Positions 18,817-24,421 of a stretch of DNA of 44,535 nucleotides are shown piece after piece. The translations under genes were made by a program, and so were the position numbers. Every line of letters begins with the position of its first letter. Positions within the stretch are counted from its first letter, which is position 1. Source of the DNA: an uncultured Clostridia bacterium. GTDB taxonomy: Bacteria > Bacillota > Clostridia > Oscillospirales > Ruminococcaceae. Location: the NCBI GenBank assembly GCA_948465665.1, contig CAOJXI010000001.1, forward strand, positions 1 to 44,535, written 5' to 3'. Under the pieces are notes generated by a model. The model did no database searches and was not told the DNA's origin. It was given only the letters and a program-made list of their open reading frames with translations.

Positions 18817-20013
18817 TTAATAATCCTTACGTGTACCCATACCAGTAGGGGTTTTAGCATCTGTATTCGTTGTAACAGTTACATTTTTTGCAGCATCGTT
18901 GCCTTTAACCAATTTACCCATAACTACAAGCCTTTGATTTGTCTGGCGGACGCCGTTTATATAATATGCGTCAATACAGGTAGAAAGGGAAATTAACTTG
19001 TCATCAGTAGTCACAGGTATATCATAGTCAAAGAAAGAAAGGGAGCGGGCCTCTGCAATCAGATTGGAAAATTGTTTTGCTGTAAACGTAGAAGAAACAT
19101 AGTCCAGATCATTGGCATTACAAATAAAAACTGCAAAAATCTGGAAAGTCATATCCTCATATTCGGTAGAATAATAAATTTTTTGGTTCTGTTGGGCAAA
19201 ATCAAGGCGTTTAAACGGAACTAGCTGGGCAAACATAACATCTTTTGCACGGTTGGCATACGCATATCGCCAGGAATTTGTCCAATTGTGGCCAAAAATG
19301 CAGTTGTTTTGGGTCAGTGTAGAGGAATCTCCAAAATTTACAGAAGAGGAAGCCCAAATAACACCATTCTTGCTGTATTTTTTATCAATTCCCAAAGCTT
19401 CATAATAGGTATTGTTCCCATTAGGGCTTTGGAGAACAGGGTAATCTATATTTGTGCCGGAAACTTTCAGCCAAGCTTTTACATCAGAATTTTTTGCCTG
19501 CCAGGATTTAATGGTAGGCGATAAGGCAGAAACTGTTGTAGGGGTTTTTGGAGTTGAAACGGTTGGGGTATTAGATTTGGGGCTAACTGTAATGGAATTG
19601 GAACCTCCCCCAATAGAGATGGCTCCAGCTTTATTAGACGAAGACGTTCCAACAACCCTAATGCCTGTTGAACTTTCTTGGGAGTTATTATTGCTAGCGG
19701 AAGAACCACTACGCAGGGAACTGACCCTTGGGGCATATTCTTCATCGGCTTCCAGATCCCAATCCTCACCGTTTTCCAGGTCTGCAAAATAATCCCGGCC
19801 TTCTTCTTCAGCCTGCTGGCGGGCTTCCACGCTTCCTGCGAGGGCTTCTGAGCGGGTATATTCTTCATCTTCTTCGTCGTCGCGAGGACGAAGCTGAATG
19901 GCAAAAACATTCGTTGTAGCAGACATCATCATTGTTGCTGCCAGCAGCAGTGTAACGGTGCGTTTATAAAGGCTGGAATCATTTTTCAGGCTCATTTTAT
20001 AGTTCAGCTCCAT
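18817..20013 (-). CDS. srtB: Class B sortase with an extended disordered N-terminal linker
   Basis: The catalytic region NSDVKAWLKVSGTNIDYPVLQ...NNCIFGHNW...LISLSTC...RLVVMGKLV matches class B sortase signatures. N-terminal membrane anchor RTVTLLLAATMMMSATTNVFA, then an acidic/Ser-rich spacer. The start is uncertain (ATG 20013 or 19995; the ORF is open to 20067). Confidence 0.8.
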   Translation of the reverse strand: MELNYKMSLKNDSSLYKRTVTLLLAATMMMSATTNVFAIQLRPRDDEEDEEYTRSEALAGSVEARQQAEEEGRDYFADLENGEDWDLEADEEYAPRVSSLRSGSSASNNNSQESSTGIRVVGTSSSNKAGAISIGGGSNSITVSPKSNTPTVSTPKTPTTVSALSPTIKSWQAKNSDVKAWLKVSGTNIDYPVLQSPNGNNTYYEALGIDKKYSKNGVIWASSSVNFGDSSTLTQNNCIFGHNWTNSWRYAYANRAKDVMFAQLVPFKRLDFAQQNQKIYYSTEYEDMTFQIFAVFICNANDLDYVSSTFTAKQFSNLIAEARSLSFFDYDIPVTTDDKLISLSTCIDAYYINGVRQTNQRLVVMGKLVKGNDAAKNVTVTTNTDAKTPTGMGTRKDY

Positions 20014-20114
20014 TTCTGCCGTATAGAAATTACGGCTGATTTTATAATTCTTATGTGGGTTGGGCAATTACCCCATCCCCGTCTTGAAAATGTAGTGATA
20101 AAACGACTATTCAT

Positions 20115-20144
20115 ATTATAACATAAGTTTTTTCAAAATTTCAA
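20115..20144 (-). promoter_or_regulatory. Promoter candidate for the sortase gene
   Basis: Minus strand reads TTGAAA-N18-TATAAT, with TGt immediately upstream of the -10. Confidence 0.45.
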
Positions 20145-20269
20145 TGCCTTTTAAGCAAAAACTTCATCTTTTTGAAATGATTTTGTCTCCAATTTTTTAC
20201 TAATTCCGCTTTTAATTTTATTTAAAATTTAACTTGACAGATTAGGCGTTATTTATTACAATAAAAATA

Positions 20270-20359
20270 GAAAATGACGCTGCCCGGTAAACGGTCAGCC
20301 CCTAAAAGTTGGAGAAATAATCGCCGAACTTTGCGAGGGCCCGGCGATTATTTCTTTTT
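20270..20359 (+). ncRNA. Candidate antisense (antitoxin) small RNA, unit 1
   Basis: TTGACA(20234-20239)-N17-TACAAT(20257-20262). About 90 nt downstream is a 12-bp stem AAATAATCGCCG/CGGCGATTATTT followed by TTTCTTTTTGTT. The RNA would be fully complementary to the 3' end and 3' UTR of the toxin transcript. Confidence 0.5.
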
Positions 20360-20428
20360 GTTCTGTATAAACAGGTTACAAATACCAATAATTACTAAGC
20401 AAAACTGTAACAGTTCTGACAAAGTCAT
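20348..20428 (-). CDS. 26-aa hydrophobic lysine-tailed peptide, type I toxin candidate (holin-like toxin/BsrG/TxpA-like), unit 1
   Basis: MTLSELLQFCLVIIGICNLFIQNKKK. GGGGGG SD lies 7 nt upstream of the ATG. The stop codon is embedded in the terminator stem. Confidence 0.65.
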   Translation of the reverse strand: MTLSELLQFCLVIIGICNLFIQNKKK

Positions 20429-20551
20429 TAGGCATCCCCCCTTTCGCTATGTACGATCAGGGGGCAAGAAACGTTTTGGAAACTTCCCGTTCCCAAAGCG
20501 GCCCCCTGATGGGGGCTAACCGCCTACCGTTTATGGCAGCGTCACAGCTTT

Positions 20552-20580
20552 ATATTACCATATTTTTCGACATTTAGCAA
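20552..20580 (-). promoter_or_regulatory. Toxin-mRNA promoter, unit 1 (equivalents at 20910-20938 and 21271-21299)
   Basis: Minus strand reads TTGCTA-N17-TAATAT with TGg extended -10. The predicted transcript starts GUGACGCUGCC near 20545. This promoter is back-to-back with the next unit's antisense promoter. Confidence 0.5.
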
Positions 20581-20627
20581 CAATATTTTTCTTGACTGTT
20601 CTAGCGTTATCTATTATAATAAAGATA

Positions 20628-20717
20628 CAAAATGACGCTGCCCGGTAAACGGTCAGCCCCTAAAAGTTGGAGAAATAATCGCCGAACTTTGCGAGGGCCC
20701 GGCGATTATTTCTTTTT
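20628..20717 (+). ncRNA. Candidate antisense small RNA, unit 2
   Basis: TTGACT(20592-20597)-N17-TATAAT(20615-20620), with the same terminator. Confidence 0.5.
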
Positions 20718-20786
20718 GTTCTGTATAAACAGGTTACAAATACCAATAATTACTAAGCAAAACTGTAACAGTTCTGACAAAGTCAT
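20706..20786 (-). CDS. Type I toxin candidate peptide, unit 2
   Basis: Peptide and SD identical to unit 1. Confidence 0.65.
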   Translation of the reverse strand: MTLSELLQFCLVIIGICNLFIQNKKK

Positions 20787-20985
20787 TAGGCATCCCCCCT
20801 TTCGCTATGTACGATCAGGGGGCAAGAAACGTTTTGGAAACTTCCCGTTCCCAAAGCGGCCCCCTGATGGGGGCTAACCGCCTACCGTTTATGGCAGCGT
20901 CACAGCTTTATATTACCATATTTTTCGACATTTAGCAACAATATTTTCCTTGACAGTTCTAACATTATCTATTATAATAAAGACA

Positions 20986-21077
20986 GAAAATGACGCTGCC
21001 CGGTAAACGGTCAGCCCCTAAAGGTCTTTGAAACAATCGCCGATCTTTTGTGAGGAGTCCGGCGATTATTTCTTTTT
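20986..21077 (+). ncRNA. Candidate antisense small RNA, unit 3
   Basis: TTGACA(20950-20955)-N17-TATAAT(20973-20978), with a terminator whose loop has diverged but whose stem is conserved. Confidence 0.5.
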
Positions 21078-21146
21078 GTTCTGTATAAACAGGTTACAAA
21101 TACCGATGATAACTAAGCAAAACTGTAACAGTTCTGACAGAGTCAT
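21066..21146 (-). CDS. Type I toxin candidate peptide, unit 3
   Basis: The peptide is identical despite at least 4 synonymous nucleotide differences from unit 1 (ttg>ctg, gta>gtt, att>atc twice). Confidence 0.65.
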   Translation of the reverse strand: MTLSELLQFCLVIIGICNLFIQNKKK

Positions 21147-21346
21147 TAGGCATCCCCCCTTTCGCTATGTACGATCAGGGGGCAAGAAACATTCTGGAAA
21201 CTTTCTGTTCCCAAAGTGGCCCCCTGATGGGGGCTAACCGCCTACCGTTTATGGCAGCGTCACAGCTTTTATATTACCATATTTTTCGACATTTAGCAAC
21301 AATATTTTCCTTGACTGTTCTAACATTATCTATTATAATAAAGATA

Positions 21347-21436
21347 GAAAATGACGCTGCCCGGTAAACGGTCAGCCCCTAAAGGTCTTTGAAATAATCG
21401 CCGAACTTTCGAGGGGCCCGGCGATTATTTCTTTTT
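21347..21436 (+). ncRNA. Candidate antisense small RNA, unit 4
   Basis: TTGACT(21311-21316)-N17-TATAAT(21334-21339), with the terminator. Confidence 0.45.
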
Positions 21437-21505
21437 GTTCTGTATAAACAGGTTACAAACGCCAATAATAACTAAACAAAACTGTAACAGTTCTGACAGA
21501 GTCAT
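21425..21505 (-). CDS. Type I toxin candidate peptide, unit 4 (leader truncated)
   Basis: MTLSELLQFCLVIIGVCNLFIQNKKK. The SD is AGGGGGA. The upstream structured leader and promoter seen in units 1-3 are replaced by unrelated AT-rich sequence. Confidence 0.5.
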   Translation of the reverse strand: MTLSELLQFCLVIIGVCNLFIQNKKK

Positions 21506-21595
21506 TAGACATCCCCCTTGGACTTTTCTTAGAAAAAGGATACAGTTATTGAAAATGTAAGGTTTTTGAATGATAACCATAAAACAAGTATAATA

Positions 21596-21636
21596 AATGA
21601 CAGGTCAGTGAAAAAATTCACACTGCCTGTCATTTA
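21596..21636 (-). terminator. Terminator after the 176-aa gene
   Basis: 10-bp stem AAATGACAGG/CCTGTCATTT with further inner pairing, 6 nt after the stop at 21642. Confidence 0.55.
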
Positions 21637-21641
21637 TTATA

Positions 21642-22172
21642 TTATTTTTTTCTAAATAAAGTATTTATTCCATCCCATCTCATTTGTGTTCTACGGGTTT
21701 GCTCTTTATACTTTGAAACTTCTCTTATTGTTTTTCCAAGTTCTCCTGAAACTTTTCTTCCTAAAAAAGTAGCAGTAACTCCTAAAATCACCGGCACACC
21801 CAGACTTACAATTGGCTGAAGAACCTCTTTTATTTCTTTTCGGGATCCCTCAAGCATTTGGGAAACTATTGCTTTCTTTTCTTCTAGGGTTCCGTCATAT
21901 TGCAATACTATTTGTATTATCTTTTCGTATTTTTGGGAGGAAAGTCCTAGTGCAATTTGAATGGTATCCCCTAATGTCGAACAAAACGTTTCAGCTACTG
22001 AAGCTAACGCAGGAACGGCATTTATCAAAGCTGCTTGGTCTCTATATCCATATTGTACAACAGCTTGTATAATTTCTTTGCATGAACCTGAAAGATTTGG
22101 TGCTACTGCGGCGATGATTTTAGGAACTGTTTGTTTTGCCATTCTTTCTGTAATTACAATTTGTTCACTCAT
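21642..22172 (-). CDS. Hypothetical protein with one predicted transmembrane segment
   Basis: 176-aa ORF in the low-GC islet with AGGGGGGGA RBS. Hydrophobic stretch PIVSLGVPVILGVTATFLG. No family recognised. Confidence 0.5.
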   Translation of the reverse strand: MSEQIVITERMAKQTVPKIIAAVAPNLSGSCKEIIQAVVQYGYRDQAALINAVPALASVAETFCSTLGDTIQIALGLSSQKYEKIIQIVLQYDGTLEEKKAIVSQMLEGSRKEIKEVLQPIVSLGVPVILGVTATFLGRKVSGELGKTIREVSKYKEQTRRTQMRWDGINTLFRKK

Positions 22173-22202
22173 ATTTGATCCCCCCCCTATTGAATATCAT
22201 TC

Positions 22203-22631
22203 CTATTCTTCTTTCCAATTTCTATATCTATCCAAATCAAGATGAAATGCTTTCATAACAAGTGTAAAGATTGCTGCATCATCTATATAACCTAAAACTG
22301 GGATAACATCAGGAATTAAATCAATAGGACTTACAAAATAAATAAGTGCAGCAGCAAAAGCTAACATAGTAGGCAGTGGAACCTTTTTATAATTTCCATG
22401 TGCATAATCCAAAACCATATTAGTAATATCCTTAATCTCAAAAATAAGGCTCCCAATAAGGGGAATTGAGGATAGAAGATTACTTTTTTGAAATACTTGT
22501 TCACCTAAAATTTTTGCTTTACTCTTATCTTTTAGAACTTTACTTGCCTTGCTCTTGTTTTTGTTTAATGCTTCCCAAAGATTATTCTCGCTGATATTTT
22601 TTCTCTTTAAAAACCCCCACATATCTATCAT
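22203..22631 (-). CDS. DUF1232 (YkvA-like) membrane protein
   Basis: ALIYFVSPIDLIPDVIPVLGYIDDAAI is the hallmark DUF1232 motif. GGAG RBS. Confidence 0.65.
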   Translation of the reverse strand: MIDMWGFLKRKNISENNLWEALNKNKSKASKVLKDKSKAKILGEQVFQKSNLLSSIPLIGSLIFEIKDITNMVLDYAHGNYKKVPLPTMLAFAAALIYFVSPIDLIPDVIPVLGYIDDAAIFTLVMKAFHLDLDRYRNWKEE

Positions 22632-22733
22632 TTGTTATTTCTCCTTATGTCCTTATCTAAATTTTGTTAGAGCTGAACAATATAACCACAGCAACTATAT
22701 CAATAAATTCAAATTTTTCTATATGTAGTTATA

Positions 22734-22886
22734 TTATTTCTTGGAAGATGGTATACTGGTTTGGCTTTTGGATTTTTTATCACCAATAAAATCGCAGATA
22801 ACAGAAACAACCGTAAATAATGTTACGACTTTTCCAACTATATCAGTAACATTATTTATATTACTTGATACTTTTTTTAAATCCAT
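22734..22886 (-). CDS. Small hypothetical membrane-associated protein (50 aa)
   Basis: MDLKKVSSNINNVTDIVGKVVTLFTVVSVICDFIGDKKSK... GGGAGGAAG lies 8 nt upstream of the ATG at 22886. The track ORF extends to a TTG at 22919 inside the recombination-site-like palindrome. Confidence 0.45.
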   Translation of the reverse strand: MDLKKVSSNINNVTDIVGKVVTLFTVVSVICDFIGDKKSKSQTSIPSSKK

Positions 22887-22912
22887 TTTGTTTTCTTCCT
22901 CCCAACAAATCG

Positions 22913-22938
22913 TTCTCAAAAAGTGTACCTTTTGAGAA
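22913..22938. promoter_or_regulatory. hix-like 26-bp recombinase site L (12-2-12, core GT)
   Basis: TTCTCAAAAAGT GT ACCTTTTGAGAA. The half-sites are 9/12 identical to the Hin hixC half-site TTATCAAAAACC as I remember it. Confidence 0.5.
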
Positions 22939-22949
22939 CATAGAAAAAT

Positions 22950-22964
22950 ATCTCAAATTGAGAT
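22950..22964. promoter_or_regulatory. Third palindrome with the same arms (ATCTCAA-A-TTGAGAT), possible accessory recombinase site
   Basis: It shares the TCTCAA/TTGAGA arms with sites L and R but has no central spacer. Confidence 0.3.
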
Positions 22965-22995
22965 TATAAGTGCGAAAATTTTTATAAAATTAATA

Positions 22996-23024
22996 TTGCA
23001 ATTCTATTTTTAATGTGGTAATAT
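22996..23024 (+). promoter_or_regulatory. Promoter inside the candidate invertible segment
   Basis: TTGCAA-N17-TAATAT with TGg extended -10. It currently points away from the 50-aa/DUF1232/176-aa operon and toward the 3' end of the recombinase gene. Confidence 0.45.
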
Positions 23025-23037
23025 TAAAAAAATAGAA

Positions 23038-23063
23038 GTCTCAAAAGGTACACCTTTTGAGAC
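23038..23063. promoter_or_regulatory. hix-like 26-bp recombinase site R (12-2-12, core AC), which may also serve as the recombinase gene terminator
   Basis: GTCTCAAAAGGT AC ACCTTTTGAGAC. Its reverse complement matches site L at 23/24 central positions including the GT core. On the minus strand the hairpin is followed by CTATTTTTTT. Confidence 0.5.
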
Positions 23064-23068
23064 TTCCG

Positions 23069-23701
<633 letters not shown>

Positions 23702-23842
23702 CTATATTTTAAATGAATTTTTTCGGAAAAATCGGAAAATTTCGACTTATTTCTTGATTCTACCATTTCCTCCCGTTCTGTGGTATAATAAATTTACCAG
23801 GGGATTTTCCGCCCTGATTACCAAAAAGTGAGGTCTTCTATA

Positions 23843-24421
23843 ATGCTGAAAGAAATTGTGAAAAAGAACCGCAGCTACCGCAGTTTTGACGGGAACCACG
23901 CAATCGGCCGGGAAACCTTATTAGACCTGGTGGACTGTGCCAGGTATACCCCTTCTTCCGTCAACCTCCAGCCCTTCCAATACTTTATTTCCTGTACCCC
24001 TGAAACCAATGAAACCATCTTCCCGCTGACCGCCTGGGCGCGGCTGCTTCCCAATTACGACGGCCCCGCCGAAGGCCATCATCCAACAGGGTACATTGTG
24101 GTATGTACCGACAAAAACATCGGCCCTAATACAGACCGTTTCCGTACTGATGTAGGCATTGTGTCCCAGACAATTATGCTGGCTGCCACAGAAAAAGGGC
24201 TTGGCGGCTGTATGATCGGCAACTTTGACAAAGAGAAAATGGCGGCTGCCCTCAAACTCCCGGAAAACCTAGTTCCGTCCCTGGTTCTGGCTCTGGGGAA
24301 GCCCGACGAGGAAATTACCTTGCTGGATTTGGAAAAAGGCGGGGATTCCAAGTATTTCCGTAAAGACGGCAGGCATTTTGTCCCAAAACGTAAGCTTGAA
24401 GATATTATCCTAGGCGATTAA
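23843..24421 (+). CDS. Nitroreductase family protein
   Basis: RSYRSF...LLDLVDCARYTPSSVNLQP...GIVSQTIMLAATEKGLGGCMIG...LALGKP are typical nitroreductase-fold motifs. The ATG at 23843 follows GAGG. Confidence 0.75.
   Translation: MLKEIVKKNRSYRSFDGNHAIGRETLLDLVDCARYTPSSVNLQPFQYFISCTPETNETIFPLTAWARLLPNYDGPAEGHHPTGYIVVCTDKNIGPNTDRFRTDVGIVSQTIMLAATEKGLGGCMIGNFDKEKMAAALKLPENLVPSLVLALGKPDEEITLLDLEKGGDSKYFRKDGRHFVPKRKLEDIILGD

Follow-up and report, generated by a model that had tools for sequence, protein, structure and literature searches.

Two nearly identical palindromes of 26 bp lie at the end of a small serine recombinase gene in the genome of an uncultured Clostridia bacterium, and the question is what this arrangement does. 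In the following, the window denotes the whole stretch of DNA analysed (44,535 nt). We consider it likely, with a probability of roughly 0.8, that the locus is a miniature invertible promoter (inverton) which is run by the adjacent recombinase. This reading is inferred from sequence and is supported by comparison with related loci, not directly for the locus itself: active flipping at the locus is inferred, as are binding of the recombinase, cleavage at the core and an effect on expression. The elements concerned are:

21642-22172, minus strand: cargo gene 3, coding for a 176-aa protein of unknown family
22203-22631, minus strand: cargo gene 2, coding for a 142-aa DUF1232 protein (PF06803, E 1.6e-15)
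22734-22886, minus strand: cargo gene 1, coding for a 50-aa protein with one hydrophobic stretch; RBS GGGAGG at 22898-22903
22913-22938, no strand: distal recombination site L (putative), a 12-2-12 palindrome, TTCTCAAAAAGT-GT-ACCTTTTGAGAA
22925-22926: core of site L, GT on the plus strand and AC on the recombinase strand
22927-23049, no strand: putative invertible segment between the cores; core-to-core spacing 125 bp, ~12 helical turns
22950-22964, no strand: third palindrome, ATCTCAA-A-TTGAGAT (ATCTCAAATTGAGAT), with arms like the outer arms of sites L and R
22996-23024, plus strand: predicted promoter of the sigma-70/SigA type with extended -10 (TTGCAA, N17 ending in TGg, TAATAT)
23038-23063, no strand: proximal recombination site R (putative), a 12-2-12 palindrome, GTCTCAAAAGGT-AC-ACCTTTTGAGAC
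23050-23051: core of site R, AC on the plus strand and GT on the recombinase strand
23069-23671, minus strand: gene for a small serine recombinase of 200 aa (Pfam PF00239, E 1.8e-29)

Three features expected of an inverton are present, namely inverted sites flanking a short segment, a predicted promoter inside the segment which points outwards, and an adjacent recombinase gene. A repeat search finds the arms of the two sites (22914-22937 and 23039-23062, 24 nt each) as an inverted repeat with 96% complementarity (23/24). Read as a direct repeat, the same arms are 88% identical (21/24), and the two readings differ only at the 2-bp core. Sites L and R are the only matches of a degenerate site pattern in the 44.5 kb. 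The pattern had no match in 100 dinucleotide-preserving shuffles, and the chance expectation for such a pair is 0. Two inverted 12-2-12 sites of 26 bp with matching cores had been reported in the first-pass annotation, and this description holds. The first cargo start codon follows site L after 26 nt, and the recombinase gene ends 5 nt from site R.

Such a pair of sites is known from the Hin system, where two palindromic 26-bp hix sites flank invertible DNA (PMC2427008). The locus has the Hin/Gin type of site (26 bp, 12-2-12, asymmetric core, inverted orientation), while cleavage at the core is inferred. In the Hin/Gin family, the asymmetry of the 2-bp crossover core of these 12-2-12 sites fixes the polarity. 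The outer arm of the locus sites (TATCAAAA / TCTCAAAA) resembles what we take to be the hix half-site, TTATCAAAAACC; on the same assumption, the inner three half-site bases (GGT vs ACC) are unlike hix. As in Hin/hix, Gin/gix, Cin and Pin, a serine recombinase of ~190-200 aa is encoded at the switch, and as in Hin a promoter within the segment could be turned toward or away from a gene. However, the Hin segment has ~1 kb and contains hin, whereas the segments of the locus family have only 122-223 bp and do not include the recombinase gene. Hin and Gin depend on Fis and an enhancer. No Fis-type recombinational enhancer could be recognised at the switch, and to our knowledge there is no Fis homologue in Firmicutes. 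We infer that the family segments do not have room for both a promoter and a Hin-type enhancer (~70 bp).

The same module is found downstream of recombinases which are 62-75% identical to that of the window. These relatives come from MAGs of Oscillospiraceae, Lachnospiraceae and Acutalibacteraceae (GTDB genomes) and from metagenomes; the metagenome scan was independent of the GTDB set, and site pairs were picked automatically. The module has the order recombinase, site, promoter, second site, cargo, and the consensus of the family site is T.TCAAAAGGT-NN-ACCTTTTGA.A. The central dinucleotides are reverse complements of each other in all 80 related site pairs (44/44 and 36/36 in two sets), which include nine core pair types (GT/AC, AC/GT, CT/AG, AG/CT, TT/AA, AA/TT, CC/GG, AT/AT, and GC/GC). 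In L002 and L007, two strains of the source species whose switch is diverged, the cores are CT/AG, not GT/AC. It was considered if AC/GT loci are GT/AC loci after flipping. This was rejected, since the cores stay where they are when inversion occurs by crossover at the core, and the two are alternative arrangements instead. The idea that differing cores stop cross-reaction of paralogous switches was also not upheld, as two loci are found in only three genomes, which is not significant.

The position of the promoter is a further common feature. The -10 end of the best promoter is 16-21 nt away from one of the sites in 59 of 78 related loci. The promoter points toward the recombinase (OFF) in 50 of the 78 and toward the cargo in nine, with 19 ambiguous cases, i.e. 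85% of the classifiable related loci are OFF. In most of the related loci, the distal site is followed, 16-80 nt further on, by the start of a co-oriented gene which has an RBS. For two pairs of loci, both orientations of a segment were encountered. The segments of L096 and L097 are identical at 112 of 127 positions when one is taken as reverse complement, compared to 74 in the same orientation, and their flanks are collinear. For L156 and L158, the corresponding values are 116 and 86 of 136 positions. Judging from these alignments, each pair represents the same segment which has been naturally flipped exactly between the sites. In relatives with the symmetric AT core, single-site deletion forms exist too, and none were found where the core is asymmetric; in AT-core loci of the L125 type, the junction to unrelated DNA occurs exactly after the core. 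Such a pattern would be expected if the crossover point is the core and polarity is determined by core asymmetry. The first-pass annotation had proposed a recombinase-driven promoter switch caught in the OFF state, and this proposal gains support from the cores, from the fixed distance of a promoter that may face either way, and from the two natural flips. As far as can be judged from comparison alone, the approximately 80 related loci show a widespread on/off switch of gut Clostridia.

The recombinase itself has an N-terminal catalytic domain, where the motif YVRVSS puts the nucleophilic serine at residue 11, and a C-terminal tail with GRPKK which is HTH-like. Its closest solved structure is Sin/Bin3 (2r0q, E 7e-27), compared to E 1e-19 for gamma-delta resolvase and E 3e-17 for Gin, while the C-terminal domain alone has no sequence match in the PDB. 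By these comparisons, the enzyme is nearer to the Sin/Bin3 resolvases than to the Gin-type invertases, and membership in the invertase subfamily, which would require invertases as closest relatives, is not met. The earlier designation "Hin/Gin-type" is thus adequate for the site architecture but not for the enzyme lineage. Sin and beta are small serine recombinases of Gram-positive bacteria for which DNA bending by HU/Hbsu-type proteins replaces Fis, and beta recombinase is capable of inversion as well as resolution. The substrate of the Sin/beta enzymes is a res upstream of the gene, consisting of site I and an accessory site II, and directly repeated plasmid copies are used for dimer resolution. 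In contrast, the locus has two equivalent inverted palindromic sites downstream of the gene and around a promoter.

With a Sin-like enzyme and three palindromes with related arms, it must be asked if the recombinase resolves, excises or swaps the cargo block without flipping a promoter. The cargo is extremely diverse across the family, and segments have been deleted in the AT-core relatives with the junction at the core. In addition, some strains of the source species have a nucleotide-identical recombinase gene but differ in switch and cargo, their sequences diverging from the first base past the recombinase stop codon. The whole switch is 79% identical between these strains. However, the replacement boundary is outside of the proximal site and the replacement takes in both sites, so that crossover at the cores was not its cause. 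The mutually inverted cores disfavour deletion, deletion forms are limited to symmetric cores, and the locus is chromosomal: its neighbours are argG/argH and genes for a nitroreductase and a sortase, and neither a transposase nor plasmid genes are found around it. We consider resolution or cassette exchange in place of promoter inversion very unlikely. It is quite possible that cargo is turned over at these loci, but besides the switch and not in its place.

The third palindrome, which is indeed found at 22950-22964 upon direct reading, had led to the caveat that the locus might be res-like. This is contradicted by the inverted cores and by the inversions observed in relatives. A res of the Sin/beta/Tn3 type is not matched either, since the sites are equivalent and inverted, the location is chromosomal, and the third palindrome is clade-specific: it is partly kept only in the closest clade (ATCTCGTTTTGAGAT in L002, ATCCCGTTTTGAGAT in L101) and is not in the family consensus of related switches. 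It could be an accessory binding site of the recombinase or an operator.

Core-to-core spacing is far from random in the family. It clusters at 124-128, 135-139, 145-148, 156-159, 166-169, 174-177, and 188-190 bp (n=78), classes that are one helical turn apart, with a best period of 10.45 bp and a phase near zero (R=0.71, Rayleigh p ~1e-17). The 125 bp of the window belong to the smallest class, at ~12 turns. A/T tracts within the family segments are phased at 10.5 bp (z ~19). Those in the segment of the window are phased at 10.5 bp as well, and equally strong phasing occurred in 5 of 1000 shuffles. The objection that 125 bp is short for a serine invertase is answered, given that this length is the smallest of the helical-turn classes and that the A/T tracts are phased.

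The predicted promoter consists of TTGCAA (22996-23001), a 17-nt spacer that includes TG at 23016-23017, and TAATAT (23019-23024). Direct reading gave the same sequence and coordinates as had been assigned initially. Its score against the consensus is only 8/12, plus TGn, and it is unlisted by a generic consensus promoter scan, which has a threshold of 9/12. It is located where the related loci keep their promoter, and the -35 and -10 regions are kept in the diverged switches of L002 and L101. As assembled, the switch is in the OFF orientation, with the promoter directed at site R and at the 3′ end of the recombinase gene.

Site R folds into a strong hairpin (stem 23035-23066) with a T-run on both strands, at about -21.5 and -22.7 kcal/mol. 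Located at the stop codon of the recombinase gene, it is predicted to serve as a bidirectional terminator as well. The terminator-like look of site R had been raised as a caveat; the look is real, but it is clade-specific. In some relatives, among them the P0055 group, a separate terminator precedes the proximal site and, on this comparison, the terminator role of site R appears to be peculiar to the source clade. The hairpin of site L is weaker (-15.2 kcal/mol on the minus strand). Site L was flagged as terminator-like in a scan, with GATTTGTT after the site, and therefore read-through in the ON state may be partial.

As both sites fold, they might be nothing but transcriptional hairpins: a terminator at site R and a leader or insulator at site L which are alike by duplication, with a fixed promoter for a short antisense RNA. 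An Rfam scan of 19900-23900 gave nothing above the gathering score, and a sub-threshold match to ctRNA_pGA1 on the site R hairpin (39.2 bits vs a gathering score of 45) would fit such an RNA. However, there is no reason for the loop dinucleotides of independent terminators to remain reverse complementary over nine core pair types, and the site arms (T.TCAAAAGGT) are conserved as DNA sequence, not as covarying stems. The separate terminator in relatives and the occurrence of the segment in both orientations also argue against this, and whole-turn spacing pertains to the looping of DNA and not to RNA. We give hardly any credence to hairpins as the whole explanation.

For the invertible promoter, the following mechanism is proposed. 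Recombinase dimers would bind the two palindromic sites, and the ~100 bp between the sites, being AT-rich with phased A/T tracts, would loop so that the sites can synapse; the sites are separated by a whole number of helical turns (125 bp, ~12). Both duplexes would be cut at the central 2 bp, one half of the tetramer would rotate by 180 degrees, and the ends would be rejoined. The GT/AC cores are reverse complements and therefore only the inverted alignment could be ligated, resulting in inversion, not deletion. In the OFF state, the promoter, at ~13-16 nt from one site, would fire into the terminator at site R, which leaves the cargo operon (50-aa protein, DUF1232 protein, 176-aa protein) without a promoter directly upstream. 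In the ON state, it would be just upstream of site L and transcription would proceed through the weaker hairpin into the cargo, with a leader of ~58 nt. A -10-like TATAAT on the cargo strand adjoins the third palindrome and could be a source of basal expression in the OFF state.

The first-pass annotation had suggested a search for both orientations. While relatives show both, only OFF was found at the locus: the species is represented by at least 16 independent assemblies, every one of them OFF, including ten contigs with an identical recombinase and ten with an identical DUF1232 protein, and an exact search of JGI metagenome contigs for the predicted ON junction had no hit. Two relatives with 94% and 88% identity (P0003 and P0004) are also OFF, or their contigs are truncated. 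Assemblies show the majority orientation only, and a minority of flipped molecules would be invisible.

It may thus be that the locus descends from an invertible promoter and no longer flips to a meaningful extent, the cargo being silent or weakly driven. Besides the uniform OFF state, a 3-bp deletion in ten source-species assemblies leads to a spacing of 122 bp, which is the commonest allele in the species and is outside every family spacing class and thus out of helical register. There is also one low-coverage contig (L111) with substitutions in both promoter hexamers. On the other hand, the recombinase has an intact ORF with 100% conservation among 23 contigs, both sites are near-perfect with cores that still match, and the allele in the window keeps the in-register spacing of 125 bp. 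Dominance of OFF is normal among the relatives and is no sign of decay. A frozen switch cannot be excluded but we consider it unlikely.

Several known systems share features with a switch of this kind. Mpi of Bacteroides fragilis is described as a serine recombinase which inverts short polysaccharide promoter segments and so phase-varies surface structures in a gut commensal, and small inversions are reportedly common in Clostridia (PMC5903667). Mpi differs in being one master enzyme that acts in trans on at least 13 scattered sites, whereas each switch of the locus family has its own adjacent recombinase, and promoter type and repeats are different. The enzyme of the locus reaches only 42.7 bits against the Mpi equivalog model NF009949 of NCBIfam, which has a cutoff of 272 bits. 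Promoter segments of Mpi have ~0.2 kb. The RecV switches of Clostridioides difficile (flagellar, cwpV) are similar as they occur in Clostridia and have short invertible segments upstream of surface, motility or toxin genes. However, RecV is a tyrosine recombinase which acts in trans on several switches, and its repeats are not 12-2-12 palindromes. The hCom2 inverton study linked its Clostridia inverton group 139 to tyrosine recombinases; the site motif of the locus was not present in those supplements of the study that were included here.

Small serine recombinases have been linked to antiphage defence genes by the RADS pipeline, with EF_B0058 from Enterococcus faecalis pTEF2 as bait; the role of the recombinase was left unknown there and inversion was only speculated on (PMC13552941). 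In the locus family, too, a small serine recombinase adjoins highly variable cargo which includes defence genes. We take the pTEF2 recombinase that adjoins a DUF262 gene to be EF_B0058, from its position and annotation. It is 34% identical to the enzyme of the locus over 136 aa, and no palindromic sites or switch were found in the 54 nt between it and the DUF262 gene. No description of the present recombinase-switch family was found in the literature searched.

More than 8000 database proteins match the recombinase at E <= 1e-20, while only about 80 loci were checked for the switch itself. We tentatively propose, at slightly less than even odds, that there is a very large unrecognised family of Sin-like recombinases in gut Clostridia, each of which would run its own intrinsically curved promoter switch of 12-18 turns that gates a hypervariable cargo slot for surface, wall-modifying and phage-defence genes. 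If true, this would provide a mechanistic role for the small serine recombinases whose presence as markers of defence loci has recently been reported without an explanation. Such switches would also represent the smallest class of serine-recombinase inversion substrates, with polarity coming from the 2-bp core alone and looping from DNA phasing, not from a Fis-bound enhancer.

Phase-variable promoters are well studied in Bacteroides and a few pathogens, while their enzymes and rules are largely uncharted in the gut Clostridia, which are abundant and mostly uncultured. With a recognisable module, switch-controlled genes and the state of an assembly may be predicted from the genome sequence, and there is a testable reason why small serine recombinases are found beside variable surface and defence genes. 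Whole-turn spacing and phased A/T tracts are informative, as natural examples, on the geometric limits of synapsis by serine recombinases, which could aid the design of compact recombinase switches.

The cargo varies widely in the family and includes surface proteins, wall-modifying enzymes and defence genes. PD-T4-6-type kinase, HEPN, nuclease and ResIII proteins are found in the family cargo, and some of the family's cargo genes match defence models. None of the three cargo genes of the window has a PADLOC match, and no function is obtained from PADLOC or PHROGs. Cargo gene 1 has no Pfam, PADLOC or PHROG family, and cargo gene 2 additionally matches phrog_14750, which is of unknown function. 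Cargo gene 3 is preceded by a poly-G tract (22180-22187), which varies from G7 to G10 among 12 assemblies.

The sequence of the region is as stated in the first-pass annotation, and its description of the two sites and the promoter is borne out. The switch and the genes next to it consist of the following elements.

22913-22938: site L, the distal, cargo-side 26-bp site, TTCTCAAAAAGT-GT-ACCTTTTGAGAA
23038-23063: site R, the proximal, recombinase-side 26-bp site, GTCTCAAAAGGT-AC-ACCTTTTGAGAC
22996-23024, + strand: promoter, with TTGCAA (22996-23001), a 17-nt spacer with TGg at its end, and TAATAT (23019-23024)
23069-23671, - strand: serine recombinase gene (200 aa, PF00239), its end 5 nt from site R
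Starting 26 nt beyond site L, - strand like the recombinase: cargo operon coding for a 50-aa protein, a DUF1232 protein and a 176-aa protein

In a repeat search, the 24-nt arms of sites L and R match at 96% (23/24) as an inverted repeat and at 88% as a direct repeat. As each site is itself palindromic, the orientation of the pair is given by the 2-bp core alone. A degenerate site pattern has just two matches in the 44.5-kb window, which are sites L and R, and was matched in none of 100 shuffles. The promoter scores 8/12, to which an extended -10 is added, and so was missing from a generic consensus scan. Site R forms a strong hairpin, followed on each strand by a T-run (about -21.5 and -22.7 kcal/mol), while that of site L is weaker (-15.2 kcal/mol on the - strand). 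A sub-threshold match to Rfam family ctRNA_pGA1 (23021-23108, - strand; 39.2 bits vs a gathering score of 45) lies on the site R hairpin and most likely reflects just its terminator-like stem-loop. On the cargo strand (-), a consensus -10 hexamer, TATAAT (22963-22968), abuts a third palindrome (22950-22964); no -35 is visible for it, and TAAAAAT is found at the equivalent position in L002, a contig of the same species, and in the related locus L101. While the switch is OFF, with the promoter facing the recombinase gene, this hexamer might allow some basal transcription of the cargo, which could be repressible.

The recombinase has thousands of relatives at about 65-75% identity. We scanned species-representative genomes (80 loci from Oscillospiraceae, Lachnospiraceae, Acutalibacteraceae and other Clostridia MAGs) and metagenome contigs (a further 80 recombinase loci). 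In the 500 nt downstream of every recombinase, matches to the 9-2-9 site core were scored with the central dinucleotide ignored. Many of these loci have paired sites, 122-223 bp apart. Pairs were chosen by hand from the match list for 44 loci (genome scan and close-relative look-ups) and picked automatically for 36 loci of the metagenome set. In all 80 site pairs, the central dinucleotides are reverse complements of each other. Such a match is expected in 1 of 16 cases for two independent dimer-binding palindromes, and identical cores are expected for direct repeats.

Core dinucleotides of the 80 site pairs (core pair: number of loci)
GT/AC: 49
AC/GT: 10
AT/AT: 7
CT/AG: 4
AG/CT: 4
TT/AA: 3
AA/TT: 1
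CC/GG: 1
GC/GC: 1

The arms are conserved as DNA sequence, with the consensus T.TCAAAAGGT-NN-ACtTTTTGA.A. Three MAGs carry two recombinase-switch loci each (L012/L045, L057/L058, L042/L077), with cores that differ within each MAG. This might keep paralogous switches from recombining together, but with n=3 it is not significant.

The core-to-core distances of 78 non-redundant loci group into narrow classes (124-128, 135-139, 145-148, 156-159, 166-169, 174-177 and 188-190 bp) which are separated by empty gaps. When periods from 5 to 20 bp were scanned, the best was 10.45 bp (R=0.71, Rayleigh p about 1e-17) with a phase near zero, a periodicity that was reached by none of 2000 random sets; site spacing thus equals a whole number of helical turns, most often 13. 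The window switch, with about 12 turns, belongs to the smallest class. The shortness of its 125 bp for a serine invertase, a caveat of the first-pass annotation, is addressed by the spacing of the related loci. Across related loci, the segments contain A or T runs in phase at 10.5 bp (z about 19 vs shuffles), and the phasing within the window segment was equalled in only 5 of 1000 shuffles. Two limits weigh on these statistics: the p-values overstate independence, as the loci are phylogenetically related, and the shuffles for the A/T runs were mononucleotide ones. Spacing and phasing point to a tight, torsionally constrained DNA loop, a putative structure that is inferred from sequence alone.

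The best sigma-70-type promoter of each related locus, in most cases with TGn, faces outward through one of the two sites, from which the end of its -10 is 16-21 nt away (mode 19-20). Orientation was called when the -10 was found 14-24 nt from a site with a clear margin over the opposite strand. The promoter points toward the recombinase, as in the window, in 50 of 78 loci and toward the cargo (ON) in 9, while 19 are ambiguous; OFF thus accounts for 85% of the classifiable loci. In most loci a co-oriented gene with an RBS begins 16-80 nt past the distal site. With promoters facing either the recombinase or the cargo, one module has been sampled in two states across genomes.

Natural inversions are found among related loci. 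Among contigs that code for one identical recombinase (P0055, 74% identical to the window enzyme), the segment has one orientation in six and is inverted in one (L096). The L096 segment matches at 112/127 positions as reverse complement and at 74/127 in the same orientation. The sequence on either side of it is collinear, and the bases next to each site on its inner side are swapped, as predicted for crossover within the sites. Similarly, L156 and L158, with 88% nucleotide identity between their recombinase genes, have segments that match at 116/136 positions as reverse complement and at 86/136 in the same orientation. That the sites are purely terminator hairpins cannot explain the data, as this would account neither for core covariation and arm-sequence conservation nor for helical spacing and the two segment orientations.

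The P0055 group has a symmetric AT core, and segment-deleted forms with a single site are common. In four AT-core contigs (L125, L126, L132, L134), unrelated DNA is joined exactly after the core. Serine recombinases cross over at the central dinucleotide, and the asymmetry of the core determines the polarity. Single-site deletions and after-core junctions fit this rule, although its application here is an inference. In the P0055/P0104/P0057 species complex (AT-core relatives L091, L092, L095, L115-L122, L125, L126, L132, L134), four forms of the switch occur: two-site OFF, two-site ON (L096), single-site deleted, and a half-site with unrelated DNA. The complex also has a fixed TTATAAT element just upstream of the proximal site.

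Within the species of the window (contigs encoding an identical recombinase or an identical DUF1232 protein, from at least 16 independent assemblies), the switch is OFF in all contigs. A 3-bp indel just upstream of the -35 is polymorphic, leading to a core-to-core spacing of 125 bp in the window and 5 contigs and of 122 bp in 10 contigs. The indel is inside the invertible segment (23002-23004 region, TTGCAATATTAATTT vs TTGCAATAATTT). As 122 bp is outside every helical-turn class of the related loci, the commoner allele may flip poorly. A locked relic, which no longer flips, fits in part, given the uniform OFF state and the 122-bp allele, but it agrees poorly with a recombinase and sites that are intact and perfectly conserved.

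Two same-species contigs, L002 and L007, show 6 mismatches to the others in the 4.6 kb that end at the recombinase stop codon (99.9% identity). From the first base past it, their switch is only about 79% identical to that of the window, and their cargo, a 300-aa protein with a hydrophobic stretch, is unrelated. The diverged switch has kept its architecture, -35 and -10. With CT and AG in place of GT and AC, its two cores have changed together. Switch and cargo have been replaced as a block with a razor-sharp boundary (window 23068/23069; L002 from 4604; also L007) by an unknown mechanism; the far boundary is outside view, as both contigs end about 25-28 nt past the cargo gene. L101 and L102 have CT/AG cores, an 88%-identical recombinase at the equivalent chromosomal position and an Acyl_transf_3 acyltransferase as cargo. 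Such cargo turnover, together with the similarity of the recombinase to Sin, would suit a res-like or cassette-exchange role, which is contradicted by the inverted cores and by a strain-level replacement boundary that is outside the sites. Exchange of cargo probably takes place in addition to the switch.

For an invertible promoter at the window locus, we propose the following mechanism. In the OFF state, which is the one seen in the window, the promoter would fire into site R, which also serves as a bidirectional terminator where the recombinase gene ends, and the distance from site L to the cargo RBS leaves no room for a cargo promoter. With the segment inverted between 22925/22926 and 23050/23051, the -10 would come to lie about 13 nt upstream of site L, and transcription would then begin shortly ahead of this site and pass its weaker hairpin into the cargo, with a leader of about 58 nt. 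It is speculation that OFF-state transcription running convergently into the recombinase gene could reduce its expression, which would help to explain why OFF dominates.

Invertible promoters run by serine recombinases are already known (Hin, Mpi). For the window recombinase, the closest solved structure is that of Sin/Bin3 (E 7e-27), ahead of gamma-delta resolvase (1e-19) and Gin (3e-17), and its score is far below the cutoff of the Mpi model. The system thus resembles Hin/hix in its working but by sequence is outside the Hin/Gin lineage. The closest plasmid-borne relatives are "recombinase family proteins" from staphylococcal and enterococcal plasmids (about 55% identical). The pTEF2 recombinase that adjoins a DUF262 gene, which we take to be EF_B0058, shares only 34% identity with the window enzyme and has no switch downstream. 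A 2026 study with EF_B0058 as bait described small serine recombinases as defence-locus markers of unknown role (PMC13552941), and small inversions are frequent in Clostridia (PMC5903667). A literature search found no description of this recombinase-switch family, its site or its geometry; individual members may already be catalogued in read-based inverton surveys.

The first genes past the switch are extremely diverse in related loci. They code for surface proteins (BspA-type LRR, collagen-like, Listeria-Bacteroides repeat, cohesin and fn3 domains), for envelope-modifying enzymes (GtrII, MBOAT, Acyl_transf_3) and for defence-like proteins (a kinase matching PADLOC PD-T4-6, HEPN, nuclease, ResIII). 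The window cargo has no PADLOC match, its sole PHROG family is of unknown function, and all three proteins have hydrophobic stretches. Ahead of the 176-aa gene, 7 nt from its start, the RBS region consists of a homopolymer at 22180-22187 (C8 on the + strand, G8 on the gene strand), which varies from G7 to G10 among 12 same-species assemblies. The tract might add slipped-strand variation, as a second layer, to the switch-controlled operon.

A tandem array (20249-21517; 358-bp unit, 3.5 copies, 94% identity) with strong promoter-like sites on the + strand separates the switch cargo from a sortase gene. Each unit codes for a 26-aa peptide, MTLSELLQFCLVIIG(I/V)CNLFIQNKKK, without a Pfam match.

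20348-20428, - strand: 26-aa peptide
20706-20786, - strand: 26-aa peptide
21066-21146, - strand: 26-aa peptide
21425-21505, - strand: 26-aa peptide

The array looks like a set of type-I-toxin-like small hydrophobic peptides.
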